DNA from: Candidatus Doudnabacteria bacterium
GTDB lineage: Bacteria; Patescibacteriota; Doudnabacteria; UBA920
DNA length: 64,000 bases
Direction of reading: 5' to 3'
Assembly (NCBI GenBank): GCA_023245895.1
Contig: JAHFJJ010000003.1
Span: 11,343 to 75,342 of the forward strand
Below, in pieces: positions 8,240-43,326 of the stretch. How positions within the stretch are numbered: the first letter of the stretch is position 1; each line of letters begins with the position of its first letter. The translations under genes were made by a program, and so were the position numbers. The notes beneath the pieces are model-generated. The model was not told the DNA's origin, did not search any database, and saw nothing but the letters and a program-made list of their open reading frames with translations.

Positions 8240-8929
8240 CTACTTTTCGTTTAAAATTGATTTTGCTAAATACATAAAAGGAATATCAATAATTCCAATG
8301 AGCCATTTGATTGTGGTTTGCCCGACGATGAGCCCAAAAATCGGAATTGCTCCGCCATAAAAAGCTATGGTAATAAATATCGCGCTGTCTAGAATCATTG
8401 AGGGAAGAGATGAGAAAACATTGCGCATCCACAAATGTTTGCCTTGGGTTTTATTTTTAAACCAGGCAAAAATATACGCATCCGCGTTTTCGCTAATTAA
8501 GAAAGCTATAAGGCTGGCAACTACAATCCTGGGCACCGAGCCAAGCACAGCTTCAAAAGCCGCCTGGTTTAAAAAGAACGGCGCGGGAGCGGTGTGAATG
8601 GCTAAATAAGAAAACACCACCAAAACAATTTGCGAGCAAAAGGCAATAAAAATCATCCTTTGGGTTTCAGCGCGGCCAAACCTTTCGTTTACAATATCTG
8701 TCAGCAAAAAAGTAACCGCAAAAATAAGCACCGCGGCCGGCGCGAAAATTTGGGTAAAGCCTAAATCAAACCGGATAATTTTGGAAGCTATAATATTGGC
8801 AAACAATATTAAAACAACATACAGCGCCACCAAAGCTTCGGAGCGCCCATAGCGTTTGGCATAAAAAGCGGCGGCTGAAGTTAAAAGCGAAACCATAACT
8901 GCCCAAAAAACAAACAATGAGAGTGTCAT
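8240..8929 (-). CDS. Queuosine precursor transporter (YhhQ/VUT family) - putative
   Basis: ~229-aa polytopic membrane protein. Pattern resembles the YhhQ/DUF165 family. Confidence 0.45.
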   Translation of the reverse strand: MTLSLFVFWAVMVSLLTSAAAFYAKRYGRSEALVALYVVLILFANIIASKIIRFDLGFTQIFAPAAVLIFAVTFLLTDIVNERFGRAETQRMIFIAFCSQIVLVVFSYLAIHTAPAPFFLNQAAFEAVLGSVPRIVVASLIAFLISENADAYIFAWFKNKTQGKHLWMRNVFSSLPSMILDSAIFITIAFYGGAIPIFGLIVGQTTIKWLIGIIDIPFMYLAKSILNEK

Positions 8930-8988
8930 TTAAGTAAATAGTTAAGATTAATAAAATTATTCTATCAAATTGACAAATTTAAATCAAT

Positions 8989-9027
8989 AAAGTAACATGT
9001 TAATACTTAGTATTAACATGTTACTTT
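8989..9027. promoter_or_regulatory. 39-bp near-perfect palindrome (aaagtaacatgttaatacttagtattaacatgttacttt) abutting the antitoxin start codon; putative autoregulatory operator
   Basis: Palindrome broken only at the central dinucleotide. TTGACA at 8970-8975 upstream. Confidence 0.6.
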
Positions 9028-9300
9028 ATGAGAAACACATCTTTAGTCACCATATCTTTGCCTCCGGCAATGGTTAAGGAGTCTGAACGCTTGGCTAAAA
9101 CCAGGCAAATGACCCGCTCGGAGTTTATGCGCGCGGCTATTCGCAGGTTTATAGAAGAGCTAGACAAAACCCAAGCCAAAAGAATCGCTTGGGAAGAAAG
9201 AGATACTCTTAAAGCTATCCAGTCTTTTGAAAAGGCTAAAAAGGCAGGGAAGCTTAAAATTTTACGCCCCGGGGATTTAGCTAAGTGGGCCAAAGAGTAG
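9028..9300 (+). CDS. Ribbon-helix-helix (CopG-like) antitoxin
   Basis: VTISLPPAMVKESERLAKTRQMTRSEFMRAAIRRFIEE is an RHH fold signature. Stop overlaps start of next gene. Confidence 0.65.
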   Translation: MRNTSLVTISLPPAMVKESERLAKTRQMTRSEFMRAAIRRFIEELDKTQAKRIAWEERDTLKAIQSFEKAKKAGKLKILRPGDLAKWAKE

Positions 9301-9301
9301 T

Positions 9302-9568
9302 ATGAAAGTCAATGCAATAATTTACGCCCCATATTTTAAGCGGGCTTATAAAAAGTTGCCTCCGGAGCTCAAGGCTATATTTATAGAAAGGGAAAAATTA
9401 TTCCGCCAGGACTGTTTTTATCCTTTGCTTAAAACTCACAAGCTTGGGGGAAAATGGAAAGGTTATTGGGCTTTTTGGCTTGATTACCACCACAGGGTAA
9501 TGTTCCAATTTGCGGATGACGGCCAAGTTTATTTTTTTAATGTTGGCGACCATTCAATATATCAGTAA
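9302..9568 (+). CDS. RelE/ParE-family type II toxin (mRNA interferase)
   Basis: 88 aa, ...LGGKWKGYWAFWLDYHHRVMFQFADDGQVYFFNVGDHSIY C-terminal RelE/ParE signature. Located 1 nt after the antitoxin stop. Confidence 0.6.
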   Translation: MKVNAIIYAPYFKRAYKKLPPELKAIFIEREKLFRQDCFYPLLKTHKLGGKWKGYWAFWLDYHHRVMFQFADDGQVYFFNVGDHSIYQ

Positions 9569-9574
9569 ACTTAA

Positions 9575-9650
9575 GGGCGTGTAGCTCAGTTGGTAGAGCG
9601 GTCGTCTTATACACGACTGGTCGGGGGTCCGAGTCCCTCCACGCCCACCA
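9575..9650 (+). tRNA. tRNA-Ile (anticodon UAU), encoded CCA; atypical T-loop (C at position 55)
   Basis: Manual cloverleaf: acceptor gggcgtg/cacgccc, D-arm gctcagttggtagagc, anticodon stem gtcgt/acgac, loop cTTATac, T-arm ggggg-tccgagt-ccctc, CCA. Confidence 0.7.
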
Positions 9651-9696
9651 CTTCTTCGTCCGCCTGAGGCGGACTACGAAGTGCAAGCATCCAAAA

Positions 9697-9730
9697 ATAA
9701 ATCCCCTAAAGGGGATTTATTTTTTTAACA
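9697..9730 (+). terminator. Rho-independent terminator after tRNA-Ile
   Basis: aaatcccctaaaggggattt hairpin + ttttttt. Confidence 0.6.
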
Positions 9731-9866: not shown

Positions 9867-12347
9867 TTATATTATAGTAGCGCTGGCGACCTTATCTCCT
9901 TCATCCAACCTCATCACCCTTACGCCCTGAGTGGCTCTGCCTAATGTAGACACATTATTTAGCGGTGTGCGGATGGTTTGGCCCATTTTGGAGATTATTA
10001 CAAGGTCGTGTTCTTCGGCGTTGTTTAGGATGTACATGGCTACAATTTTGCCGGTCTTGGGGGTAACTTTTAGGGTTTTGATGCCGGAGCCGCCGCGGTT
10101 TTGGATTTTGTAGTATTGGCCTTCCGTTTTTTTGCCCAGGCCGTTTTCGGTTACCACCAAAACTTCCAGGGATTTTACATCAACTTCTTTTCTTATAATG
10201 TCCATGGAAATAATGTGGTCGTCTTTTTTAATGCGCATGCCGGTAACGCCGCTGGCGTTGCGGCCCATTGGGCGCACGTCTTTTTCGTTAAAGCGAATAG
10301 CCTGGCCGTTTTCCGTGGAAAGCATTATTTGGTCTTCTCCGGAAGAAGTTTCTACCCATTTCAATTCATCATCCCCTTTGAGGTTAATGGCAATCATACC
10401 GCTCTTGCGCACTTTGGCAAATTCTTCCCGCGCGACTTTTTTAATAAGGCCATTTTTGGTGGACATGACCAGGAATTTTCCGCCGGAGGCGGATCCGCCT
10501 CTGGCGGAGGCCATGGTTAAAATTGCTTGCGCGGTTTCATTGTTCTGGAGCTGTAGGAAGTTTACCAAGGCCTGGCCTTTGGCTGTCCTTGAGCCTTCGG
10601 GCAGTTCGTAAACTTTAGTCTGGAAGACGCGGCCTTTGTTGGTAAAGAAAAGAATGTCGTCGTGAGTGTGTGAAGATATAAGTTTGTCCACTACGTCTTC
10701 TTCTTTTAACGATTGGCCAATTATTCCTTTGCCGCCGCGGGCCTGGGCTTTGTAGGTATCGGGCGCCAGGCGTTTTACATAGCCGCTCTTGGTTACTGTA
10801 ATTATTACATTGCTTTCAGGGATTAAGTCTTCGGCGCTAAAGGAACCTATGGCGTTCTTGATTACCACAGTCCTGCGCTCGTCGCCGAATCTTTCTTTAA
10901 GGTCCAGCACCTCTTTTTTAATAATAGATAAAATCTTTTTAGCGGACTGCAAAATGCCTTCTAATTCTTCTATCAATGCTTTTTTTTCTTTCAGTTCATC
11001 GTCAATTTTTTTGCGTTCAAGGCCGGCCAAAGTCTGCAGGCGCATTTCCAAAATGGCGTCTGTCTGGATGTCGGTCAGCTTGAACTTCTTCATTAAGTTG
11101 ACCTTGGCTTCTTCCTTGGTCGGTGATTTGCGGATAATACTGATGACTTCATCAATATGGTCCAAGGCTTTCTTTAAGCCTTCCAAAATATGCGCGCGTT
11201 CTTTGGCTTTTTTAAGCTCAAAGGCTGTCCTTCTTTTTACCACAACCTGGCGGTGCTCCAGGAATTTTTCCAAAACCGTTTTTAGGTTTAAAACATGGGG
11301 CTCAATGCCCCCTACCAAGGCCAGCATGTTCAAATGGAAAGTTTCCTGCATTTGGGTGTAGGAAAAAAGCTGGTTTAAAATTTTGTTGGCCAGGCCGTCT
11401 TTTTTTATATCTACGACAATCCGCACGCCGTCTTTATCGCTTTCATCGCGCACGTCCTTAATGCCTTCTATTTTTTTCTCGCTGACCAGCAGGGCGATTT
11501 TTTCCAGCAGGGTGGCTTTGTTAACGCGGTAAGGAATTTCGTGGACTAAAATTTGGAAGGCCCCGCTCTTGGTCTCCACAATTTCAGTTTTTGCGCGCAT
11601 AACAATCCCGCCCTTGCCGGTAGCATAGGCGTTCTTTATGGCCGCGACATCGTAAATAATTCCGCCGGTGGGAAAGTCCGGTCCTTTAACAAATTCCATT
11701 AGGTCTTCGGTGGTGGCTTCGGGGTCATCAACCAGTTTTACAATCGCGTCGCAAATTTCCGTAAGGTTGTGCGGCGGAATATCTGTTGCCATGCCCACGG
11801 CAATGCCAAGTGTGCCGTTTAAAAGCAAATTAGGCACTTTGCCCGGAAAGACAATAGGTTCTTTGCGCGTGGCATCGTAGTTGTCGCGCCAGTCTACGGT
11901 TTCTTTGTCTAAATCTGTCAAAAGTTCTTCGGCTAAGGCGGACATCCTTGCTTCGGTGTACCTCATGGCCGCGGCGCCGTCGCCGTCCATAGAACCAAAG
12001 TTTCCCTGGCCGTCTATTAACGGGTAGCGCATGGCGAATTCCTGGGCCATGTGCACCATGGCGTCGTAAACCGAAGCGTCGCCATGCGGGTGGTATTTAC
12101 CCAAGACATCACCGACTACAGCCGCGGATTTGCGGAATTTAACGCTATGGCGCAGCCCCAGTTCGTGCATAACGTAAAGGATGCGGCGGTGCACGGGCTT
12201 AAGGCCGTCGCGTACATCGGGAAGGGCGCGGGAAACAATTACGCTCATGGCGTAATCCAAATACGACTCCTGCATTTCTGTTTGGATGTCGCGCTGTTTT
12301 ATTTCTCCTATGTCGGTTGATAGTTCTGCTTTGGAATCTTTGGGCAT
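9867..12347 (-). CDS. gyrA: DNA gyrase subunit A
   Basis: 826 aa. [27 protein letters not shown]-terminal signature, C-terminal beta-pinwheel repeats. Confidence 0.9.
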
Positions 12348-22389: not shown

Positions 22390-22464
22390 TGGAGGCGCAG
22401 ATGGGAATTGAACCCATGCATAGTCGTTTTGCAGACGACCGCGTTACCACTTCGCCACTGCGCC
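22390..22464 (-). tRNA. tRNA-Cys (anticodon GCA), encoded CCA
   Basis: Acceptor ggcgcag/ctgcgcc, anticodon stem gtcgt/acgac, loop ctGCAaa, T-arm atggg-ttcaatt-cccat. Confidence 0.8.
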
Positions 22465-25429: not shown

Positions 25430-25505
25430 TGGTGCCGGACCCCAGAGTCGAACTGGGCACGCCTGCCTCTTCAGGGCAGCGCTCTAACCGCTGAGCTAGC
25501 CCGGC
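25430..25505 (-). tRNA. tRNA-Phe (anticodon GAA), encoded CCA
   Basis: Acceptor gccgggc/gtccggc (one G-U), D-arm gctcagcggttagagc, anticodon stem ctgcc/ggcag, loop ctGAAga, T-arm cccag-ttcgact-ctggg. Confidence 0.8.
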
Positions 25506-26215
25506 ACAACTTTTGTTAATCTGAAGCTTCTTAGCTCAGGAAGACGAAGTTTTATTCTAGAACCAAAATCAATAGCGTTTTTGATTTTATCATGTTTTCT
25601 TTTTAAATACAATACTTCGTCTTTATAATACATAGCCTTAAAAAGGCTTACGCTATCCCCTTTTACATACTGCAATCCATATACTCCTGCGCCTCCGTGA
25701 TTTCTCAAAAGTCCTTTCACACCATAGAGTGTGGTTAGTCTTTTTTGCAACCATGCCAGAAAGTCTTTACTCGCAGAATAAAAGAAAATCTTGTAGCCAA
25801 AGCTGTTTGGCCAGCGTTTGTCCCAAAAAATATGGAAAGAGCCGTTTCCGTCAAATAAACCCCTTAAAAAGTCGGCAAAGTATTCATTTGGAACTAATAC
25901 TTGCTTAATAGTTTTGGACTTGGCGGATGTTAATCCTAAGGAGTTTAAAAATTTGTAGAAGTTTTTGTCCCCAAAGTCAATACGGAAATATTTTTTCTCT
26001 GTTTCCCCGCCCCTGGCGTACCTTCCGATTTTGTTGTTTAAAGAAAGAGCTTGTTTAAAGTTATTGACCATCTCTTCTTCTTTGGAACAAAAATTTATAT
26101 GTCTGCCGTCAGAATGTAAACTGCCATCGGAAGCAATTAAGCCAATTGCATAAGCAAGATTACATGACCATCCAGTTTTTACTTTATGTTTTAACTGGCC
26201 TCCGCGAGTTTGCAT
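25496..26215 (-). CDS. LAGLIDADG family homing endonuclease (two-motif, single-chain)
   Basis: Motif 1 LAYAIGLIASDGSL and motif 2 FLRGLFDGNGSF ~100 aa apart, 239 aa. Lies between tRNA-Val and tRNA-Phe. The last 10 nt overlap the 5' end of tRNA-Phe. Confidence 0.8.
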   Translation of the reverse strand: MQTRGGQLKHKVKTGWSCNLAYAIGLIASDGSLHSDGRHINFCSKEEEMVNNFKQALSLNNKIGRYARGGETEKKYFRIDFGDKNFYKFLNSLGLTSAKSKTIKQVLVPNEYFADFLRGLFDGNGSFHIFWDKRWPNSFGYKIFFYSASKDFLAWLQKRLTTLYGVKGLLRNHGGAGVYGLQYVKGDSVSLFKAMYYKDEVLYLKRKHDKIKNAIDFGSRIKLRLPELRSFRLTKVVPG

Positions 26216-26234: not shown

Positions 26235-26309
26235 TGGTGGGCAATGTAGGGATTGAACCTACGGCCTACCCGGTGTAAACGGGTCGCTCTACCACTGAGC
26301 TAATTGCCC
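26235..26309 (-). tRNA. tRNA-Val (anticodon UAC), encoded CCA
   Basis: Acceptor gggcaat/attgccc, D-arm gctcagtggtagagc, anticodon loop ttTACac, T-arm gtagg-ttcaatc-cctac. Confidence 0.8.
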
Positions 26310-33067: not shown

Positions 33068-33502
33068 TTACTCTTCTTCATGTATTTCCCTAATCAGCTC
33101 ATCTATATGCTGTACATACCTTGGCGAGACGTCTAAATGGAAAGAAATGCGCGGAATTATTTTGGTGTGGAAGTGTTTGTTAACTTCGCCTTGGATGTCG
33201 TAAATATTTTTGGCCAAAAAGTCCATAATTTTTTTGTCCAAAGATGGGTTAGCCAGAGGTTTTTTATCAACCGAGGATTTAACCCCCTCTCCCTCTGGGA
33301 GAGGGCCGGGGTGAGGGTTTACAGCATGGAAAATAGAAATCCAAATTTTCGCCCACTTCATGTCTTTGGACGTTTCCACTTTAGTAATAGTTACCAGCGC
33401 GTCAAAGTCCTCTAAAAATTCCAGTAAAACCGGCCCCAGTTCATGCTGGATAAGCGAGTTAACTTTGGCTATGCGGTTGGTGTCTTTTTTAACTTGTTTC
33501 AT
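33068..33502 (-). CDS. rbfA: Ribosome-binding factor A, carrying an in-frame repeat-derived insertion
   Basis: KQVKKDTNRIAKVNSLIQHELGPVLL matches the RbfA N-terminal KH-like region. Residues PHPGPLPEGEGV are encoded by the family A repeat at 33284-33318. The preferred start is the ATG at 33500-33502. The longer ORF to 33541 reads into the repeat. Confidence 0.6.
   Translation of the reverse strand: MKQVKKDTNRIAKVNSLIQHELGPVLLEFLEDFDALVTITKVETSKDMKWAKIWISIFHAVNPHPGPLPEGEGVKSSVDKKPLANPSLDKKIMDFLAKNIYDIQGEVNKHFHTKIIPRISFHLDVSPRYVQHIDELIREIHEEE
33284..33318. repeat. Family A GC-rich palindromic repeat inside rbfA
   Basis: ccccctctccctctgggagagggccggggtgagggt. Confidence 0.7.
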
Positions 33503-33590
33503 TTGGTTTCCCTCTCCCTCCTTGTCCGCCATAGTCCGCATGAGGCGGACGACGGCGGATGGGAGAGGGATTAAGGGTGAGGGTTAAGAG
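33494..33590. repeat. Composite palindromic element (family A-like arms ccctctccctcc / gggagaggg around nested gtccgcc...ggcggac hairpins), immediately upstream of rbfA and at the left edge of the GC-rich island
   Basis: Read directly. Arms complementary. Confidence 0.6.
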
Positions 33591-33725
33591 GTTAGATAAT
33601 CTAATTATAACAATTAAGTATAATAAATTTTTTAAATTTTAACAAGACTGTACATATAAAAAATAAAGAAGGAGCCTGAAAATTCCAGGCTCCCTTCTGT
33701 GGTTCTTGAGAATTATTTGTCCGGA

Positions 33726-35132
33726 CTACAGCTTGGCCAGACGGTCGAGCAGGGGCTTGGCGTCCTTTCCAAAAACCTCTCTTATCCGAGCCTCGAATTG
33801 AGGCCTGAATGTGCTGCCGCTGGTGCGGGCGAGGTTTGACCGGAGGCTTGCGGCAAGATGCTTATTGTAGGCGCCGAAATCATCTTTGAGCATCTTGTCC
33901 CACACATTTTTAGGGAATTTGCCCCCGTTCTCTTTCTTAGTTTCTAAAGCCTTGATTTTCCATTCGATCTGTTCACGTTTGGAAAGGGCGTCCCAACTTT
34001 GTTTGGGTTTAGAGTTCCGTCCGCCTCGTCGGGGGGCTCGCGTTGGCTCGTGTGGTGTTGTAGGGGCCTGCGGGGAGGCAGGTGCCTCCACCACCATAAT
34101 TTTACCCCGCCGCATCAATATATCGGCGATTTCTTGGAGCGTTGTCCCGTCGCCGGTTGAGTTTTGTGCAGCCGCGAGCAGGGCTTCGAATTCCTCCAGC
34201 GCTTCTCCTCCAACCGCTGTAGCAATAGTCTGGAGCTTGTCGAACTTTAACGTGGTCATGGTCTGGCGTACCTCAGGAATTGGATGTGTGAAGACCGAGA
34301 TTACTTCGTCTTCCTTCACCCACCACAGGTTGCTGTTTACCCACTGCTCCAGCAGTGAGCGGATGTTTGCTTGCGTGAATTCTCGACCGTCGCATGCGAA
34401 GTGGAAAAGGTAAGTTCGCATCCGGGCAGGCCGTCTGGCGTTCATGAAGCGCGATACATAAACGTATCGCTCAATTCTGTCGGGAAACAAAATGTTACCG
34501 CCTTGCTGGATCATTGCTTGCAGCAATAGGACAAACAAACCAAATTCCCTTTTGGCTCCCTTGATGGGATCGAAGTGCTGCTTAAAAAATGTTGGCAAGT
34601 GGTCGGTTTTCGCTTTGGGCAGGGATTTTTGCTGGGCAATGAGCTTCTGGAAAAAAACTTCAGCCTCATCTGCGTTCAGCATTTCTTCCAAGGCCAGCTT
34701 AATTTTTCCGTGTTGCTTAATGGACTTGTTTTCCCGCGCGTCGTGTACGGTTATAGCAAGACAGCGTGCGCTGTTTTTGGCCGAAATCAGTTGCAAGGTG
34801 TTTTGGATTTCCGTAATCCTTGTTTCCGCCGTGCCGCAAAAATCCAAGTGGAAAGCATCTACGTAGGCATCTTTGCCGTGGACCTGTCTTAACCTGGACG
34901 GGAATTGCTCAAGGTTGGGGCAAAACCGGTATTGAAACCTACGGATTAAGTCATTGCCAAGGTCGTTGTCCCATTCAATAAGAAAACCCTGCTTTTCCGG
35001 AACGTTGTGCCTAAGCCAAATTTCGGCTTCAAAGCCTTTGCCGCCCAAGGTGGCCAGCTTAGCCTCAACGAGAGGCTTGAAACCGGCAATCATCTGCAAG
35101 AACATTTCAATAATTCTCTCTTTTGGTTGCAT
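33726..35132 (-). CDS. Island protein 1: large hypothetical protein (468 aa) with Pro/Arg/Lys-rich low-complexity C-terminal segment
   Basis: Long ORF with GC-rich codon usage unlike the flanking genes. No domain recognised by eye. Confidence 0.5.
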   Translation of the reverse strand: MQPKERIIEMFLQMIAGFKPLVEAKLATLGGKGFEAEIWLRHNVPEKQGFLIEWDNDLGNDLIRRFQYRFCPNLEQFPSRLRQVHGKDAYVDAFHLDFCGTAETRITEIQNTLQLISAKNSARCLAITVHDARENKSIKQHGKIKLALEEMLNADEAEVFFQKLIAQQKSLPKAKTDHLPTFFKQHFDPIKGAKREFGLFVLLLQAMIQQGGNILFPDRIERYVYVSRFMNARRPARMRTYLFHFACDGREFTQANIRSLLEQWVNSNLWWVKEDEVISVFTHPIPEVRQTMTTLKFDKLQTIATAVGGEALEEFEALLAAAQNSTGDGTTLQEIADILMRRGKIMVVEAPASPQAPTTPHEPTRAPRRGGRNSKPKQSWDALSKREQIEWKIKALETKKENGGKFPKNVWDKMLKDDFGAYNKHLAASLRSNLARTSGSTFRPQFEARIREVFGKDAKPLLDRLAKL

Positions 35133-35469
35133 GAACCCCCCTGAAAATTGTTAAAAATGCTAAACCATACTGACCAATAAGATTAATAAAAACAGCCCGA
35201 AATGTCAAGGCAAAAGTCTTTGACATAATTGCCTGTTTATGATACATTTTAAAGTCCCTTTTCTAGGGTAACGTACATAAAGGGTCTGTTGCCAAATGTC
35301 ATTTTTGCCCAAAACGAGCTTCTTTGGTAAAATTTCCTAAAAAATTTATCTGCTTACCTTCCAGGTAAACATCAAAATTTGTTTAGAAAATTTTCCTCAA
35401 ACAATCTCATTTTGTTTCAAAAAGCCCATTCGGCAACAGACCCTTAAAAATCTTTTGGAGGATAGATAA

Positions 35470-37029
35470 ATGACTGATAAAAAGTCCGAACTTAAACCGG
35501 TTGCGGTTGTCAGCGCCATGCGCACGGACAGGGATGTGGCTTTGACGCTTGAAAAAGTCATTGCCACCTTGAGCTCCCTGCAGAGTGAATTTGCCTCGGG
35601 AGGTATTGCCCAGGAGTTTTTGGCCTTAACCTTGTTGGTCCTCCAGTGCGTACGCTCCGGAAGAACAGACAAGCAGGCGGAAGACGCGGCAGACAGTCTT
35701 GGTCTATTTTTAATTGACCTAGCGGCTTGCCTTACCACCACCCCCTTTGAGAATCCACATGTCGAAGGAGTTACAGCCTTAGGCAAAGAACTTCTCCAAC
35801 TCCGGACAGACCTTAAAGAGTTGGCCGTTTCAAAAGCCCAAGTCGCAAACGAATTGCAAAGCAGGAACGCGGCGTTTGATTCTCTTTCACAACTTGCCGG
35901 CCAGCAGACTGGGAAGATTCACGAGTTAGAAGCAAGGCTGGCCAGCGCCACGGAAACTAACTTTGACCGGTTAAACCGGTTGGAGCCCACGCTTGCGGGA
36001 ATAGCCAGGGGCCTTGGAGAGAAGCTGGAGTCTGCCAAACACCGCGAAAGCTTGTTGCGGCAGCTCTCTCAAGTTCACGAGGAGCAGGCCGTCCAAGTTA
36101 GCAGGGATGTTGAACGGGTTGCCGAATTGGTTGTTTCCATTCAACAGGTGGTTGCCAATGTTAAGGCTCAAGTTAATCCAGTTGAGGTCGTCCAATATGC
36201 ACCTCAAGAGCCACCCGCGGCGGAGTCAGATCTTGATGTTGCCAAAGAAATTGGTCGTAGACAGGAATGGCTGCTTCAAGTTGGCGAGAGGATTGAGGAA
36301 ACTTCGTCGGCTTGTTCCGATATTGGCCATGAGTTGAGCCGTGTAAGCAGCGAGCTGGGGTTGGCCAAAGGCCCTGCCCGCGCTCCACTAGTCATTCAGC
36401 AAACCAAGCTCACTCAACAAAAAGGCCAACTCGAGGCTTTGCAACAGAAGCTGTTGGACTCAGAAAAAGGGGTCCAAGAGCAAATCAGAAAACTGCGTGC
36501 TTATAAGGCCGCGCAGGAACTGGTTGCTTCAGGCTTGGACCAGCAGGCAATGCTTGCCGGTTTACCGGAAATTCCTGATACGACGGAAGCAGAACCCGAA
36601 CAGCAGCAAGAGGCTGGTCATGATGCCGATTTGAATAAAATCCAGGCGCTTGCCGGCCTGGCGGCTGCTCACGGAGTGTCCACCAAGGCACTCTTTATGA
36701 TTACCTTGTACGAATGCCTGCCGCAAAGGCCAACCGGCGGCGTTCTAAGAAAGAGCAGTTTACGGATTGCCAGGGTAGCAAGGGATTGCGGACTGCTTTC
36801 GGAGTTTGGGTTTGGAAGAGAGATCCGCCAGATTGTCTACTTAAAGCAAGATGAGGCCTTTCCCAAGGCCTTTATGCACTATGGCGGGACCCCCGGCGGT
36901 ATAGCAATTTACAGCCGGACGGCCAATCCGCTTAGCTGGAAAGTCACGGATGTGTTTTCTGGTGAGGAGGTAAGTAGATTTCTGGCGCAGTATGTCCAGA
37001 ATGAACAAAAGGCGGAGGAGCGTTCTTAA
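35470..37029 (+). CDS. Island protein 2: hypothetical coiled-coil-rich protein (519 aa)
   Basis: Long heptad-like Q/E/L-rich central region and globular C-terminus. Divergent from island protein 1. Confidence 0.5.
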   Translation: MTDKKSELKPVAVVSAMRTDRDVALTLEKVIATLSSLQSEFASGGIAQEFLALTLLVLQCVRSGRTDKQAEDAADSLGLFLIDLAACLTTTPFENPHVEGVTALGKELLQLRTDLKELAVSKAQVANELQSRNAAFDSLSQLAGQQTGKIHELEARLASATETNFDRLNRLEPTLAGIARGLGEKLESAKHRESLLRQLSQVHEEQAVQVSRDVERVAELVVSIQQVVANVKAQVNPVEVVQYAPQEPPAAESDLDVAKEIGRRQEWLLQVGERIEETSSACSDIGHELSRVSSELGLAKGPARAPLVIQQTKLTQQKGQLEALQQKLLDSEKGVQEQIRKLRAYKAAQELVASGLDQQAMLAGLPEIPDTTEAEPEQQQEAGHDADLNKIQALAGLAAAHGVSTKALFMITLYECLPQRPTGGVLRKSSLRIARVARDCGLLSEFGFGREIRQIVYLKQDEAFPKAFMHYGGTPGGIAIYSRTANPLSWKVTDVFSGEEVSRFLAQYVQNEQKAEERS

Positions 37030-37043
37030 AAGCATAAAAAAAA

Positions 37044-37076
37044 TGGCGTGGAATTCAGATGAATTCCACGCCTCTT
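37044..37076. terminator. Bidirectional hairpin terminator between convergent island genes
   Basis: ggcgtggaattcagatgaattccacgcc flanked by A-run and T-run. Confidence 0.6.
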
Positions 37077-37083
37077 TTGTTGC

Positions 37084-38589
37084 CTATTTTTTCTTTTGCT
37101 TGAGAAGCAACTCCCGTTGTAGGGTCGCCCGAAACTCCCTGGCTCCTTCGGCATCTGAGGGGGATTGGCCAATTGCTACTGCCTCCAGGATGCACGTAGT
37201 CAGGTGTTCCCGCTGGACAGGCTTGCTTTTTGGCCAGAGCTCGTATCCATCTATATTAAGGTGGATGATTTCCCGGTTGCCAATGGCCAGACTGGCCAGT
37301 ACCGTGGGTCCTAACGGCCGTTTAATAAGGAGGTAGGTTGCCTCCCCGATTTTTACCGGAATGGACCGGGGTTTGGGATCTTTTTTTTCTGTCTTTACCC
37401 CGCCGCCGCCTCCACTTCCGCCGCCTCCACCCGGCTTTTTTTTGCCCGGTAAATCAATGGTTGGTCCGTCGCCGTGAAGGGTGGGGATTCCCCAAGTGTT
37501 GCCGAACATTTCCACCAGTTCCATAACTTGCGAGCCGAGTGAGTTCCTTTCAAAGACATCCTGACCTTCAAAGAGGGCTTGAGCCGGCGGCGAGATGTGC
37601 GTCCCGAGGTAAGCGTAGTCCTTTCGCCACGCTGCGCTCTTGAGAAATTTGTCACTCAAAGAGTCGCGGGCTGAGTTTTGGTGGGTTAGAACCGAACGGA
37701 CGAATATATCTCCGGTCAGTCCATGGCTGAAGAGGGGGTAAGGCAGCGCAGACCCAAGGTGAGGGCAATACGCAACCCGCAGACCAGTCTCGGCGTCGGC
37801 AATCCAGAGACCGCCGTCACCGTCTTCGGTTCTTTCTATGCAGGCTTGGATAGCCAGGTCGCTTCCCGGAAGGATCCTGTCGGCCAAAGGCGGAGGATCA
37901 AGCTGTTCTCCCCCAATTAAGAGTCTGAACATTTTGTCTTTGATCCTGGGGATCCGCCACTTCAAAGCTTCGCGGATTTCAACGTAGCTTGTGAATACCG
38001 GATCCGGGACGACAATGGCTGTAAATGAGCCTTTGATGCCTTTTTGAGGCCCCAGTTCCACTCCGGCCTCGTCCACCTCCCGAACTTCCGGTGGTGTACC
38101 CAGTTCAATGTCCGGAATGGATATCATTCTGACCTGGCCTTTTACGGTCGTCCGGGTTAGTATGTAAAATCCGGACCTGCCATCGTCGTTGGTTTCTCTC
38201 AAGGCAAAAGTAGCCAGCCTGCCAATCCGTTTTTGGGCCGCGCCGTGGTGCAGGGCAGACCGTCCTGACCTTCTTTCTTCCCTGGGCGTGCCCAAGAATA
38301 GGTAGCGGTCCACTCTTGGGTCAGTAAGGCCCACGCCATGGTCTAAAATCACAAGGGCCCGTCCACTGGCAGACAGGGGGTGATTTTTGACCAGGAAAAT
38401 TTCCACGAAAGCTTTTTCCGGTTCCCAATTTTCCTCGTTCATGCAGGCGCAAGCTCCGTTCCTTACAACTTCCCACAAACAGGCGCCTTTGTCCTTATAG
38501 AGCTCTCCTGCCAGGGTTTCGGTAAACAAGGTAGGGTCTATTTTCCACCCTTGGGCCCATGCGGTAGATTTTGCAGCAGCTGATTTCAT
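37084..38589 (-). CDS. Island protein 3: putative GHKL/Bergerat-fold (HATPase_c-like) ATPase with Gly-rich linker and uncharacterised C-terminal domain
   Basis: N-box-like EVVRNGACA, G1-box-like VILDHGVGLTD, a weaker G2 region, and a linker KKKPGGGGGSGGGGG. ATG overlaps the stop of the upstream gene (ATGA). Confidence 0.45.
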   Translation of the reverse strand: MKSAAAKSTAWAQGWKIDPTLFTETLAGELYKDKGACLWEVVRNGACACMNEENWEPEKAFVEIFLVKNHPLSASGRALVILDHGVGLTDPRVDRYLFLGTPREERRSGRSALHHGAAQKRIGRLATFALRETNDDGRSGFYILTRTTVKGQVRMISIPDIELGTPPEVREVDEAGVELGPQKGIKGSFTAIVVPDPVFTSYVEIREALKWRIPRIKDKMFRLLIGGEQLDPPPLADRILPGSDLAIQACIERTEDGDGGLWIADAETGLRVAYCPHLGSALPYPLFSHGLTGDIFVRSVLTHQNSARDSLSDKFLKSAAWRKDYAYLGTHISPPAQALFEGQDVFERNSLGSQVMELVEMFGNTWGIPTLHGDGPTIDLPGKKKPGGGGGSGGGGGVKTEKKDPKPRSIPVKIGEATYLLIKRPLGPTVLASLAIGNREIIHLNIDGYELWPKSKPVQREHLTTCILEAVAIGQSPSDAEGAREFRATLQRELLLKQKKK

Positions 38590-39443
38590 TTTTTCCTCTT
38601 TGAAGAACCGCTTGTCGCGGATATGCCGGCCAGTAGCCGCATATCCCTAGCAGACAGCGGTTGTCCGGTTTGCAGTTGTTGTAAAGTTTCAGCGTCTATC
38701 CCGCAACATCGAAACAGGCGCTGTACATTGGTGATAATGCGTGTCTTGTGGGCGTCGTTTAAACTGCCCGGCTTGAGCGCGAGTTCGATAAAATTTATGG
38801 CCGCGGTAAGCATAGTAAGCAGGTTATTGACCAGTTGGTCAGGCCTGCAGTCCACACTTACGACTTGGTCGCCAGGCGCTGGCTTGCCTCTGGCTTTGAG
38901 TTTTGCGCCTTTCTTCTTTCTTTTGTGCCAGTCCTCTTCCTGCTCAAGCAGGAAGGGAAGCTCATCCCATTTGCCGGCCTGTTCCGCAACGACCACATTA
39001 AATATTCCGGCTGCGGCTTCCACGTTCACGGTACCGCCTTTTTGAATGCAGTGTCTTAATACTTTTCGGCTTTGGATGCCGGCTTTCCTGCAGGTCTTAG
39101 CCAAGCCGTGTTTTTTAACTACTTGCGCGGCGGCTTTTGCAAGGTCGGCCATGGAACCAATTTCCGGGTGTTGGCTTTGGAAAGTTCTTGTAACGGCGGC
39201 AAACACCAATCCGGGTATGCTCATCTTGGTTACGGTTTCCAACCGGTTGATGTTTATACCTAACGGTACTTCCGGCGGATTGGAAGCCAGTATTCCCTCA
39301 ATAAGGGAATCGGGAATTTTGCCCGCCCTGAGTTTTTTCCAGTCAGGGTCATTCTCTTCTATCCATGCAGAAAGCGCCGAGGCCAGTAATGCCCTAAAGA
39401 CGATTACTACTGTCGGTAATTCTGTTGTTGCTTCTCGTTTCAT
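38586..39443 (-). CDS. Island protein 4: hypothetical protein (285 aa), translationally coupled to the GHKL-like ATPase gene
   Basis: 4-bp ATGA overlap with the downstream gene. Lys-rich central linker. Confidence 0.5.
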   Translation of the reverse strand: MKREATTELPTVVIVFRALLASALSAWIEENDPDWKKLRAGKIPDSLIEGILASNPPEVPLGININRLETVTKMSIPGLVFAAVTRTFQSQHPEIGSMADLAKAAAQVVKKHGLAKTCRKAGIQSRKVLRHCIQKGGTVNVEAAAGIFNVVVAEQAGKWDELPFLLEQEEDWHKRKKKGAKLKARGKPAPGDQVVSVDCRPDQLVNNLLTMLTAAINFIELALKPGSLNDAHKTRIITNVQRLFRCCGIDAETLQQLQTGQPLSARDMRLLAGISATSGSSKRKK

Positions 39444-39561
39444 TAAACCTCCTTAATTCACGAAAAATCGTATTCAAAAGTGCGCCGTAAATTTTTTACG
39501 GGACTAATTACAGTAACCTAATTTGCCAACTTAGTCAAGATAAAGAGCTTTTTGGTTTGGC

Positions 39562-39590
39562 TTGACAAAAAGCTAAAAAATAGCTATAAT
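39562..39590 (+). promoter_or_regulatory. Consensus sigma-70-type promoter (TTGACA-17 nt-TATAAT) oriented toward island protein 5
   Basis: Perfect -35 and -10 hexamers with a 17-nt spacer, seen directly. Confidence 0.6.
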
Positions 39591-39728
39591 TTTTGGTTAA
39601 AATAGAGTTTCTTCTTTTGGGTTAACCTTTATGAAGCCAAAAGGAGAAGCGCTGTTTTTTGAAGGTTTGAAAGATAGCGTGAGCACACCAATCCGGAAAC
39701 GGACTACATTTGACAGGAGGACACTAAC

Positions 39729-41294
39729 TTGACTACCACAGCTACAGCACCAGCTCGAAAGCCGATTGTTTTTAAGAAGTCGCTTGTGTTCAGGGAAATT
39801 GCCTTGCACCCTTGGGTGCACTTTGACGAGGCCGCCGGGGTATATTTAATCCGCAACTACGGTTCGGCTTTGTTTAGGGGTATAGCCCAGGCCGGCTTTG
39901 TTTTTTGGAAAACCGGCGACACGCCGGACGGCCGTCCGGGCGACGCCTGGCTATACGATGGCGTGGTTCCCGTAGGAACCGGCCACGGGATATTTGACGA
40001 ACATACCGAGGACGGGCGGAAGAAAGATGCTTGCGCGGCCACGCTTGTGGCTGAGTACCTCGAAATTTCTTCCATGCCTGAACTGGCAGAGCTCCTGGCT
40101 TACACGCTGGGCGCGGATAGCAAGGCTAGAGCCAACCCGTTTTCCCTGCCCACCGTCCTCAAAGACATGAATTTGTTTTTGGAGGAAGATCCCGTTTCAA
40201 TCTTATCGTGGGTCATGGAAGCGGTTACGGCTCACGTTAACCGCCGCCGGTTTGAACTCGGGCGCCAAACTTCCGCCAGGCCGTCGCTGGAAAACCCGCT
40301 TACGTTTGACTTGGTGCTGGCAGATTTTTTGTGCCAGTATCACGTCCAGTACGGGGCTCAGGCGAATTCCGTGCTGGCTCCGGCCATTCGCGAGTTTTTC
40401 GCGCTGGCTCCGGCCGGAACAAATCCGGTGGAGTGGCTTAAGACCAACTATCCCGCGTTGCAAGAGTACAAAGCCAAACAAGCTTGTGTACTCATGGCCC
40501 AGGCTTTTGGCCTTTTGGACCATCCTCACTTCCGCTACATAATACAGTACGTGGTCAATCCTTCCCTCTGCCAAAAGGGCAAACTTCCTTTTGCCGCCTC
40601 ATTTGAGTTGCCTACCTTAATTGTTGACATATTCAGCGACAACGGCGGGCAGTTGGAGCAGGCCTTGGACTGGGCTTCAGTAGCAATTGCCGCTAAGCTC
40701 TACTCTTCCAAGAGGTTTGTAGAAGCCAAGGCCGAGTACGCAGCCGGGGCAAAGTTAGAAGTACTAAAAACGTCACAAGGGGAAGTCAGCCTGGTCAGCC
40801 TGGTCAGCGACAACCCAAAGGCAATGGCGGTGTCCCATTCCGCCGCCGCCGCCAGGGCCCAACGCAACGCTGATATTTTTGTCCTGCGAAAGCCTTCCGG
40901 GCATGTTGGGGTGTTTGCGGATCCCCTGCTCGACATCCGTGATGTAGTAAAGCTGCTGCGGATGCTGGAAATACAGAAGCGTGGTCTTGAAATGCCACCT
41001 TGGGACAAGCTGGTGAAAGGGGGCGACGGGCCTGATGGAGCGTTCTTTTACTTTCCGGACGCGAACCATTTGTACAACAGTTCGCTGTCCACTCCTGACG
41101 TTCCCAGGACGCTCCTGTCTTTGGACCGGGTCCTCCACACCATTCGGTTCGCCTTGGACCAAAAAGCCTTCCCGCCCGATTTTTCCGCGGGTTGCTTGAA
41201 AGGAGTGTGTGGCTCAACAGACAACGATCCCTGCCCGATTTTCGCGGCAGGCCTGGAGCGTTGCCACCAAATCCGCGCGCGGTCCAAAAAGTAG
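39729..41294 (+). CDS. Island protein 5: hypothetical protein (521 aa), TTG start with strong RBS
   Basis: aggagga 8 nt upstream of TTG at 39729. No in-frame ATG nearby. GC-rich. Confidence 0.5.
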   Translation: MTTTATAPARKPIVFKKSLVFREIALHPWVHFDEAAGVYLIRNYGSALFRGIAQAGFVFWKTGDTPDGRPGDAWLYDGVVPVGTGHGIFDEHTEDGRKKDACAATLVAEYLEISSMPELAELLAYTLGADSKARANPFSLPTVLKDMNLFLEEDPVSILSWVMEAVTAHVNRRRFELGRQTSARPSLENPLTFDLVLADFLCQYHVQYGAQANSVLAPAIREFFALAPAGTNPVEWLKTNYPALQEYKAKQACVLMAQAFGLLDHPHFRYIIQYVVNPSLCQKGKLPFAASFELPTLIVDIFSDNGGQLEQALDWASVAIAAKLYSSKRFVEAKAEYAAGAKLEVLKTSQGEVSLVSLVSDNPKAMAVSHSAAAARAQRNADIFVLRKPSGHVGVFADPLLDIRDVVKLLRMLEIQKRGLEMPPWDKLVKGGDGPDGAFFYFPDANHLYNSSLSTPDVPRTLLSLDRVLHTIRFALDQKAFPPDFSAGCLKGVCGSTDNDPCPIFAAGLERCHQIRARSKK

Positions 41295-41316
41295 GACAAG
41301 TTTCGTTTACCACTTA

Positions 41317-41397: not shown

Positions 41398-43326
41398 TTA
41401 AGTGTTCAAAGTTTTTTGTTTTATTTTCTCCTCAAAGCTTTCCAGCACGTCTCCCGCTAAAACTTTTACGTTGGTTTTAAGTTTTATACCGAATTCTTCG
41501 CCTTTGCCCGCGGTTCTTGCGGCGACTTTGCTTTGCTGGAGTTCGGTTATTTCCGCGCGGCCCATTTCCACGCCTTCCCTTAGCACCATAATGTGGCTGA
41601 CTTTTTTAAGTTCGCCTTCTTCCACTTTGCCGCCGACTATCATTAAACCTTTTTCCGTGCGGAAAATTGCCAGGACTTTGGCTTTGCCAAAGGTGTGCTT
41701 TTCCAATTCCGGCGTGAACATTTTAATTACGGCAGAAGTTAAATCTTCAATCAGTTCATAAATAACTTCGTAAGAATCTATTACCACTTTTTTTTGTTTG
41801 GCCAGGTTAATGGCTTTGGAATTTATTTTGGTATGGAAGCCAATTATAGTAGCGCGGGAACTTGCGGCCAAAAGAACATCGCTCTCGTTAATTTCGCCTA
41901 CGCCTTCGTTAAGGATGGAAATTTTAACTTCATCGTTCTTTAATTTGGCAACGGATTGCTTAATGGCTTCCAAAGAGCCGGCCACGTCGGTTTTTATTAT
42001 CAGGTTCAGTGTTTTATTCTTTAAGTCGCCCACAATGGCCTGCTTGCCGGCAATTTTGTGGCTCTGGTTTTTGCGCTGGACGGTAATGGCAATTTGTTTG
42101 GCGGAGTCTAAATCTGCCGTGGTCTGCAGAATGTCGCCGGCTTGCGGGACTTCGCTAAAACCGGAAATTTGCGCCGGGGTGGAAGGCACGGCCTCTTTTA
42201 ATTTTTTACCCGTTTCATCCTCTAAGCTCCTAATTCTGCCAAAAGCCGCGCCGGCCGCAATAATATCGCCGACTTTAAGCGTGCCGTTTTGTACAATTAC
42301 GGTTGCGGTTGCCCCTTTACCCTGGGAAATTTTACTTTCAATAATGGTGCCAATGGTTTTGCCAGCCGGATTGGCGCGGAAGTTTTCTACTTCAGCCGTG
42401 AGTAGAATCATTTCCAGCAAATTGTCTATGCCCATGTTTTGTTTGGCGGAAATTTCTACGGCAATGGTTTTGCCGCCCCACTCCTCGGTTAACACGCCCT
42501 GTCCGGCCAGTTCCTGTTTGACTTTTATTACGTTGGCCTCGGGTTTGTCTATCTTATTTATAGCCACAATCATGGGCGTGTTGGTAAACTTGGCGCGATT
42601 TATAACTTCCAAAGTCTGCGGTCTTATCCCGTCATCGGCCGCAACAACAAGGATAATAAGGTCGGTTACGTTGGCGCCGCGGGCCCGCATTTCACTAAAG
42701 GCTTCGTGGCCCGGAGTGTCCAAAAAGGTAATTAACTTTCCATTTTTTTTAATCTGATAAGCACCAATGTGCTGGGTAATGCCGCCGCTTTCACCTTCGG
42801 CGACTTTGGCTTTCCTAATGGTATCGAGCAAAGTGGTTTTTCCGTGGTCAACGTGCCCCATAATGGCAACAATGGGCGGACGATATTTTAAATTTTCTTC
42901 TTTTTCGGCTTTTAAAACTTCCTGCAAAAAACCAATGCCGTATTCCGCCACTGCTGTATCAACTTCAGTCTCAACTTCAAAACCTAACTCTTGCGCCACA
43001 ATAGAAGCAGTATCAAAGTCCACCTCTTCGTTAATGCTGGCCATTACGCCGTTGTTAATTAAAACGGTTATGACTTTGGTTACGGGCAGTTTTAACAAAA
43101 CGGCAAAGTCCCTAACCTTAATGAAAGAAGGCAGTTTAACTTTTTTTATCTCCTTCGGCCCCGTTGCCTGCTTGACCGGCTGGCCGTAGGCTTCCAAAAG
43201 TTTCCGTGCCACGTAGTTGTCTACCTTGTTGGCCTTAGGCGAAATAAAATAACCCTTCTCCTTGGCTTTCAGGCGAAGGTCTTGGATGGACATATTTAAT
43301 TGTGACGACAAACTAGATAGATTCAT
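41398..43326 (-). CDS. infB: Translation initiation factor IF-2
   Basis: G-domain motifs (GHVDHGKTTLLD, DTPGH, NKID). 642 aa. Confidence 0.9.
   Translation of the reverse strand: MNLSSLSSQLNMSIQDLRLKAKEKGYFISPKANKVDNYVARKLLEAYGQPVKQATGPKEIKKVKLPSFIKVRDFAVLLKLPVTKVITVLINNGVMASINEEVDFDTASIVAQELGFEVETEVDTAVAEYGIGFLQEVLKAEKEENLKYRPPIVAIMGHVDHGKTTLLDTIRKAKVAEGESGGITQHIGAYQIKKNGKLITFLDTPGHEAFSEMRARGANVTDLIILVVAADDGIRPQTLEVINRAKFTNTPMIVAINKIDKPEANVIKVKQELAGQGVLTEEWGGKTIAVEISAKQNMGIDNLLEMILLTAEVENFRANPAGKTIGTIIESKISQGKGATATVIVQNGTLKVGDIIAAGAAFGRIRSLEDETGKKLKEAVPSTPAQISGFSEVPQAGDILQTTADLDSAKQIAITVQRKNQSHKIAGKQAIVGDLKNKTLNLIIKTDVAGSLEAIKQSVAKLKNDEVKISILNEGVGEINESDVLLAASSRATIIGFHTKINSKAINLAKQKKVVIDSYEVIYELIEDLTSAVIKMFTPELEKHTFGKAKVLAIFRTEKGLMIVGGKVEEGELKKVSHIMVLREGVEMGRAEITELQQSKVAARTAGKGEEFGIKLKTNVKVLAGDVLESFEEKIKQKTLNT

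Follow-up and report, generated by a model that had tools for sequence, protein, structure and literature searches.

To our knowledge, tRNA-Ile2(UAU) of Mycoplasma mobile is the only tRNA of its kind whose working has been characterised experimentally. Besides a genomic UAU tRNA-Ile, TilS-independent decoding of the M. mobile type involves a genome lacking both tilS and tRNA-Ile(CAU), an isoleucyl-tRNA synthetase (IleRS) whose residue equivalent to E. coli W905 is Arg or Lys, and AUG rejection by the ribosome. In M. mobile itself, U34 is unmodified, IleRS is adapted via Arg865, and the ribosome blocks misreading of AUG (PMC3575796). The literature lists nine to nineteen bacterial species with a UAU tRNA-Ile (PMC3575796, PMC4013482), and bacterial UAU anticodons are still termed "rare cases" in recent work (10.64898/2026.02.03.703510). 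The cultivated Saccharibacterium Southlakia epibionticum is annotated with both TilS and TruB; its tilS adjoins ftsH, TilS is essential in two of three Tn-seq analyses, and one gene is labelled tRNA-Ile (PMC10633639 supplement). A literature search found no paper on UAU tRNA-Ile, tilS or lysidine in Patescibacteria.

Position 55 of the T-loop is normally a uridine that stacks on the U54-A58 pair and contacts G18, and TruB requires the T-arm motif 53-GUUYRANYC-61 (PMC7912444). In Southlakia epibionticum, truB withstands transposon insertion and is dispensable by Tn-seq (PMC10633639 supplement). Searching the literature for U55C returned only papers on mutant substrates.

The tRNA-Ile(UAU) gene and its surroundings

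The window, meaning the whole 64-kb stretch of DNA analysed here, contains ten tRNA genes according to ARAGORN, with nine matched by Infernal/Rfam. Among them is a tRNA-Ile with anticodon tat on the forward strand (Table 1), which matches RF00005 over the full model (9575-9647) at 69.4 bits (E 4.7e-13; gathering score 29 bits), the second highest of the nine window matches. Its acceptor stem, GGGCGTG/CACGCCC, is followed by A73 and an encoded CCA. The D arm, preceded by TA and followed by G26, reads GCTC-AGTTGGTA-GAGC, the anticodon arm GTCGT-CTTATAC-ACGAC, the variable loop TGGTC, and the T arm GGGGG-TCCGAGT-CCCTC. The bases engaged in tertiary interactions are kept (U8, A14, G18, G19, U33, G53-C61, U54, C56 and A58), U55 being the lone exception, and the T-loops of all nine other window tRNAs read G53-T54-T55-C56-R57-A58. 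The absence of U55 is one departure from the consensus, and the tRNA stays in the RF00005 family. A preliminary description of this DNA had recognised a tRNA-Ile with a UAU anticodon in this interval and a C at position 55 in the T-loop TCCGAGT; ARAGORN and Rfam agree on the gene, and the comparison with the nine other window tRNAs bears out the unusual base. The 3' CCA is encoded in all ten window tRNA genes, and is missing from many sampled Patescibacteria tRNA(UAU) genes.

Table 1. Features of the tRNA-Ile(UAU) locus, in window coordinates
Feature	Position	Strand	Basis and remarks
Match to a sigma-70-like promoter, TTGACA-17-TAACAT, ahead of the toxin-antitoxin genes	8970..8998	+	10/12 consensus positions; consensus match only
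Ribbon-helix-helix (CopG/RelB-like) antitoxin gene	9028..9300	+	Pfam RHH_1 E 8e-9, above curated cut-off; weak RelB-like NCBIfam match
RelE/YafQ/YoeB-like toxin gene	9302..9568	+	Weak, sub-threshold YafQ, YoeB and RelE matches
tRNA-Ile(UAU) gene	9575..9650	+	76 nt, CCA encoded; ARAGORN, Rfam RF00005, cloverleaf pairing across 12 relatives
Anticodon TAT (U34 A35 U36), loop C32-U33-UAU-A37-C38	9608..9610	+	Read off the sequence; ARAGORN
T-loop TCCGAGT, C55 in place of conserved U55	9628..9634	+	T54 9628, C55 9629, C56 9630
G+C-rich hairpin in the 3' trailer, CTTCGT-CCGCC-TGA-GGCGG-ACTACGAAG	9654..9681	+	Fold; directly after CCA, before the terminator
Intrinsic-terminator-like hairpin AAAUCCCC-UAAA-GGGGAUUU, then U run	9693..9726	+	Fold
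gyrA, convergent conserved neighbour, synteny anchor	9867..12347	-	217 nt downstream of the tRNA 3' end

Two small genes lie directly upstream, and the stop codon of the toxin gene is 6 nt from the tRNA. The order and size of this pair (9028-9568) fit a type II toxin-antitoxin system, and the same arrangement precedes the tRNA in a sister species (L135). A promoter consensus scan found no convincing promoter belonging to the tRNA itself, and the match upstream of the pair is a possible source of a transcript running through the tRNA. In sister species the tRNA is preceded by a TATAAT box and followed by a hairpin and T run (terminator). In the window, the tRNA plus its trailer (161 nt) folds with a z of -6.7; the G+C-rich hairpin is single-copy in the window and missing from sister-species trailers, and the hairpin at 9693-9726 was missed by a simple terminator scan. 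Transcription of the tRNA would start either at the toxin-antitoxin operon upstream or at a weak promoter belonging to the tRNA, with the transcript predicted to end at the second hairpin and its U run.

On the far side of the pair lies a queuosine-precursor transporter gene (YhhQ family, TIGR00697, 149.5 bits; 8240-8929, reverse strand), conserved throughout the clade as a neighbour of the gyrA/tRNA-Ile(UAU) locus. What separates this gene from the tRNA is variable: a toxin-antitoxin pair, one gene for a hypothetical protein of 223 aa, or genes for DAO and an F420 ligase.

Such variability would suit a tRNA that arrived on an inserted mobile element and does not belong to the host, just as C55 could in principle be an error of sequencing or assembly. 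The interval from gyrA to the transporter gene does differ among species, the window version holding the toxin-antitoxin pair, and in its interior the tRNA is similar to another allele class of Saccharibacteria (L038, 61/73 identical). Against this stands an independent ENA assembly from another sample (L121), which matches the window at 99.89% identity across 4518 nt, encodes a GyrA 99% identical to that of the window, and carries an identical tRNA-Ile(UAU) with identical flanks, C55 included. Because of this identical copy, and because two further species also have C55, sequencing error is excluded for practical purposes. Nor does any integrase or repeat flank the tRNA-Ile(UAU) in the window, and the position and orientation of the tRNA relative to gyrA match those of relatives, so that error or mobile origin is extremely improbable. 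Insertion of a mobile element within the tRNA gene was likewise rejected: the sister genes differ from it in the D-loop and to either side of the anticodon, not merely in the 3' part, and neither an integrase nor a direct repeat is present. The window allele was found solely in the window and L121 among the data searched; metagenome scans with the exact tRNA carrying N at position 55, and with the anticodon arm plus T arm, gave zero matches.

Several other features of the window were recorded. The tRNA-Cys gene (22390-22464) and the tRNA-Ile(UAU) gene (9598-9618) are identical in the anticodon stem and the bases beside it (GGTCGTCT...ACGACT and GCGGTCGTCT...ACGACT), which may reflect chance or gene conversion and is judged compatible with chance. 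A LAGLIDADG homing-endonuclease ORF (Pfam E 1.5e-10; 25496-26215, reverse strand) lies between tRNA-Val (26235-26309) and tRNA-Phe (25430-25505), overlapping the 5' end of the latter by 10 nt. Between infB (41398-43326) and rbfA (33068-33541), which are usually adjacent, lies a block of about 8 kb (33700-41300) with a G+C content of 0.48-0.53, as against 0.40-0.47 elsewhere, and five long ORFs without a significant Pfam match; it may be an acquired island. The usual place of truB is behind infB-rbfA. In the window, the genes next after rbfA are one of the DHH family and an oppositely oriented FMN reductase gene, and the Southlakia gene order is not comparable.

AUA decoding and the UAU anticodon

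In 54 long ORFs of the window, AUA accounts for 325 of 15,975 codons (20.3 per 1000), or 28% of isoleucine codons, exceeding AUC. The gyrA gene alone holds 16 AUA codons, and at these positions 43 pooled homologues have Ile in 78% of cases, Val in 17%, Leu in 4% and Met in 0.3%, a profile that resembles AUU and AUC positions. From the codon frequency and the alignment with Ile, it follows that AUA means isoleucine and is needed everywhere.

One genome of each prokaryotic species was searched with a tRNA(UAU) pattern that accepted either T or C as base 55, which gave at least 120 matches. By record title, 70 of the 120 matches listed come from Patescibacteria/CPR, 28 of them from Saccharibacteria; the remainder of those listed are mainly from Planctomycetota, Chloroflexota and archaea. 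With 70 of 120 listed matches falling in this one phylum, UAU is ordinary there, and a UAU tRNA-Ile anticodon is normal for Patescibacteria. The gene also keeps its place. Two Saccharibacteria loci (L006 and L024), whose GyrA is 71-75% identical to that of the window, have the gene neighbourhood in common with it (a beta-lactamase-fold gene in both; RsmI, YebC and RuvC in L006), and the tRNA-Ile(UAU) adjoins gyrA in these two and in 7/7 other clade species whose locus reaches past gyrA. On this shared neighbourhood, the analysis assigned the window to Saccharibacteria.

The window tRNA needs no lysidine, since its anticodon is UAU and not CAU. No PP-loop motif (SGGxDS) occurs in the window, no TilS-like gene was found in the window plus 137 loci, and TilS is absent from about 50 window ORFs scanned, as are TruB and IleRS; ileS and the rRNA genes lie outside the window. 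Southlakia does have TilS, so Saccharibacteria are not uniform. The preliminary description had taken UAU to imply a different strategy for AUA and had proposed a look at AUA usage. The UAU anticodon does imply direct reading by this tRNA without lysidine, and AUA is indeed a common codon in the window. Its statement that a UAU anticodon is rare applies to bacteria generally, as recent literature also has it (10.64898/2026.02.03.703510), and fails for Patescibacteria, where the 70 of 120 listed matches are found.

The structure and identity positions of the gene fit a working tRNA. When 12 Saccharibacteria tRNA-Ile(UAU) genes are aligned, stem cells form standard pairs in 252 of 252 instances and both partners have changed in 14 of the 21 pairs; these values were not attained in any of 500 shuffles and no slid register came close, a control that does not amount to a probability because the sequences are related. 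The identity set of E. coli IleRS consists of A73, C4-G69, U12-A23, C29-G41, A37, A38 and AU at anticodon positions 35-36. The window tRNA matches it at A73, C4-G69, U12-A23, C29-G41, A37, A35 and U36; position 38 is C, as opposed to A38 in E. coli tRNA-Ile, and C38 is found in many Patescibacteria tRNA(UAU) genes. Given the E. coli-type positions A73, C4-G69, U12-A23, C29-G41 and A37, the tRNA is presumably charged by IleRS.

The gene has nevertheless diverged more than its neighbours, with about 61/77 positions identical to the nearest orthologue, as against 67/75 for tRNA-Cys and 84/87 for tRNA-Leu. The differences lie in D-loop length, the anticodon stem and the T stem. This greater divergence makes it likely that the gene either evolved rapidly or was replaced by another allele.

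Unusual divergence from the nearest orthologue would also fit a redundant or decaying copy: a lysidine-modified tRNA-Ile(CAU) from another part of the genome would then read AUA, and C55 would be the first visible lesion under relaxed selection. A precedent is offered by the cultivated Saccharibacterium described above, with its annotated TilS, essential in two of three Tn-seq analyses, and its one gene labelled tRNA-Ile; both systems also coexist in some bacteria (PMC3575796). Decay, however, should strike stems and invariant bases at random, whereas all stem pairs here are intact, with compensatory changes, and none of U8, A14, G18, G19, U33, A37, G53-C61, C56 and A58 has been lost. By Infernal score the gene ranks second among the window tRNAs, the locus is conserved in every relative whose locus reached far enough, AUA is used at 20 per 1000 codons, and the identical single change to C55 is seen in three lineages. 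Redundancy or decay is therefore very unlikely. The suggestion in the preliminary description of a decaying gene is not supported, in view of the covariance score, the compensatory pairing, the identity elements, the CCA, the terminator, the use of AUA and the presence of the gene in two assemblies. Read from its sequence and conservation, the tRNA-Ile(UAU) gene is almost certainly functional, and annotation pipelines should not call such C55 tRNA genes pseudogenes, a modest practical consequence.

Distribution and likely effects of C55

Among the 120 tRNA(UAU) matches listed, 118 have the canonical T-loop TTCGARU and two have C55, one from Magasanikbacteria (L025) and one at L102. A census of position 55 took in the first 137 loci, with 354 distinct predicted tRNAs. 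It counted 118 tRNA(UAU) with U55 and four with C55, the four including the deliberately added window and L132, and, among 230 non-UAU tRNAs, 220 with U55, four with C55 and six with G55. The rate of C55 is thus alike in tRNA(UAU) and other tRNAs (about 2%), and C55 is not generally tied to UAU. Bases other than U55 amount to about 4% of the 230 non-UAU tRNAs, and occur in further Patescibacteria and Planctomycetota loci (L119, L102, L047, L032 and L074), some of which have several such tRNAs (L119, L102 and L047). In the Parcubacteria locus L119 (1138-1462), tRNA-Gly and tRNA-Phe have G55 and tRNA-Val has C55, all within 400 nt; at L102 (6393-7386), C55 is present in both tRNA-Ile(UAU) and tRNA-Gly.

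Within the clade of the window, taken as GyrA homologues at 88-92% identity (about 80% nucleotide identity in gyrA), the syntenic gyrA-adjacent tRNA-Ile(UAU) carries C55 in three of the eight species, each time on another tRNA backbone. These are the window species with L121 (GyrA P0001 and P0002; T arm as given above), L132-134 (P0005; CTAGG-TCCGAGT-CCTAG) and L138 (P0014; GATGG-TCCGAAT-CCATC). U55 is found in L122-131 (P0003; loop TTCGAAT), in L135, L139 and L140 (P0006, P0008 and P0011; all TTCGAGT) and in L141 (P0013; TTCAAGT). In a neighbour-joining GyrA tree, U55 lineages separate the three C55 lineages, and the tRNAs of L132 and L140 differ solely at D-loop position 16 and at position 55. 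The simplest reading of these comparisons would be that U changed to C independently on at least three occasions, or that C55 alleles replaced the earlier ones. Against a background of 2/120, the binomial probability of at least two further C55 cases among the seven other species is about 0.006, a value to be read in the light of a small sample of non-independent species and of a clade ascertained from a C55 case.

C55 is also established in phage tRNAs. In IMG/VR, C55 tRNA(UAU) occurs on 99 contigs, as 32 distinct flank-inclusive sequences and 24 distinct ARAGORN-called tRNAs, dominated by two large conserved families. Their T arms are GCAGG-TCCGATT-CCTGC and GGTGG-TCCGATT-CCATC, on about 90 viral contigs among L142-L240, many of them from metagenome 3300045988; the T arm at L102 is identical to that of the first family. 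The other tRNAs on those contigs comprise 104 with U55, four with C55 and one with G55, and U55 tRNA(UAU) in IMG/VR, with at least 120 matches, is at least as numerous as C55. Since phage families and sister species alike carry it, C55 tRNAs have been retained over evolutionary time in several settings. The preliminary description had treated C55 as a one-off; instead it recurs in sister species and is fixed in phage tRNA families.

The T arm of the window tRNA, G-U-C-C-G-A-G-U-C, departs from the TruB motif and lacks the target uridine, and because TruB needs U55, C55 rules out pseudouridine 55. C55 cannot be isomerised, nor can it accept hydrogen bonds from G18 as U55 does, so the elbow contact would have to rearrange. 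G18, G19, C56, G57 and A58 are unchanged, and no covarying change appears at G18-G19 of the D-loop or elsewhere. As truB is dispensable in Southlakia, loss of pseudouridine 55 is probably cheap in Saccharibacteria. Avoidance of a restriction site through loss of the T-loop TCGA was considered and rejected, as four other window tRNAs retain TCGA.

Tolerance is one account of this recurrence; another is that U55C has been favoured again and again by selection acting on the AUA-reading tRNA in particular. It might serve the avoidance of TruB or another T-loop enzyme, escape from a T-loop-cutting nuclease, or tuning of elbow rigidity for AUA versus AUG. The three backbones on separate branches of the GyrA tree and the binomial value, with its non-independent species, point in this direction, as do the restriction of C55 to this tRNA (the nine other window tRNAs and both other tRNAs of L122 have U55), the phage tRNA(UAU) genes with C55 among neighbouring tRNAs of which 95% keep U55, and the absence of any other altered conserved position in the C55 genes. 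On the other side, C55 is equally frequent in the broad sample (2/120 for tRNA(UAU) and 4/230 for other tRNAs, plus six G55), the clade sample comprises few species and took a C55 case as its starting point, and neither an enzyme, nuclease or ribosomal partner nor a covarying change was found. Adaptive C55 in this general sense is unlikely. Its more far-reaching form is less likely still: that U55C is a selected, recurrent adaptation in Saccharibacteria and phages which, through the loss of pseudouridine 55 and a rewired G18-55 contact at the elbow, would alter how this tRNA, prone to near-cognate reading, is handled by the ribosome (AUA versus AUG), by a T-loop modification enzyme or by a T-loop-cutting toxin. 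If this were true, position 55 would be a tunable site and not an invariant one.

Comparison with known systems

Taken as a whole, the locus is best explained as a working AUA-decoding tRNA-Ile of a Patescibacteria bacterium in which C55 is tolerated, an explanation we hold with good, though not full, confidence. IleRS would presumably charge the tRNA, and U34 would pair with the A of AUA, as shown experimentally for the M. mobile tRNA-Ile(UAU). Misreading of AUG may be avoided by a property of the ribosome, a modification of U34 or competition with tRNA-Met; we know of no study of how Patescibacteria avoid reading AUG as Ile. C55 would be a tolerated T-loop substitution that alters the G18-55 contact and leaves the tRNA functional, and it probably arose or was acquired at least three times in a genus-level clade. 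Charging, decoding and the tolerance of C55 are in each case inferred from sequence.

These observations contrast with textbooks and recent papers, which hold bacterial tRNA-Ile(UAU) to be rare and U55, or pseudouridine 55, to be more universal than any other feature of tRNA. In the very large, uncultivated group of the Patescibacteria, the common gene for AUA is a UAU tRNA. Related species with U55 or C55 in the same essential-looking tRNA also constitute a natural repeated experiment on position 55, and pairs of the L132/L140 type provide material for testing what U55 or pseudouridine 55 contributes to folding, charging and decoding.

Among described systems, the M. mobile tRNA-Ile2(UAU) is similar in being an elongator tRNA with a genomic UAU anticodon and A37, and it reads AUA without lysidine (PMC3575796). 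The two differ in phylum and in the T-loop, where M. mobile has pseudouridine 55 by mass spectrometry (PMC3575796) and the window tRNA has C55. Of the features that mark TilS-independent decoding of the M. mobile type, the genomic UAU tRNA-Ile is present in the window. With the canonical bacterial tRNA-Ile2(CAU) and TilS, the window tRNA shares the task of reading AUA as Ile and the IleRS identity positions A73, C4-G69, U12-A23, C29-G41 and A37, but its anticodon is UAU. In Lactobacillus casei and L. plantarum, a tRNA-Ile(UAU) coexists with tilS (PMC3575796), which would be the model if the host carried both systems.

Also close are other Patescibacteria tRNA-Ile(UAU) genes (L006, L024, L122 and L140), which have the CUUAUAC loop and a 3' CCA and are gyrA-adjacent in Saccharibacteria. 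The acceptor stem is common to the window tRNA and five of the seven other clade species with a recovered tRNA, whereas the window D-loop is shorter, the anticodon and T stems are different, and five of the eight clade species have U55. The C55 families of phage tRNA(UAU) in IMG/VR, on dozens of contigs, likewise combine UAU with a TCCGAnT T-loop. Unlike the window tRNA, they have unrelated backbones and U38 (CUUAUAU loop) and lie in phage tRNA clusters, and none is close to it. What is known, then, is the reading of AUA by UAU, of the M. mobile type; what is new here is C55, a departure from an almost invariant base that recurs in one clade and is paralleled in phage tRNAs.
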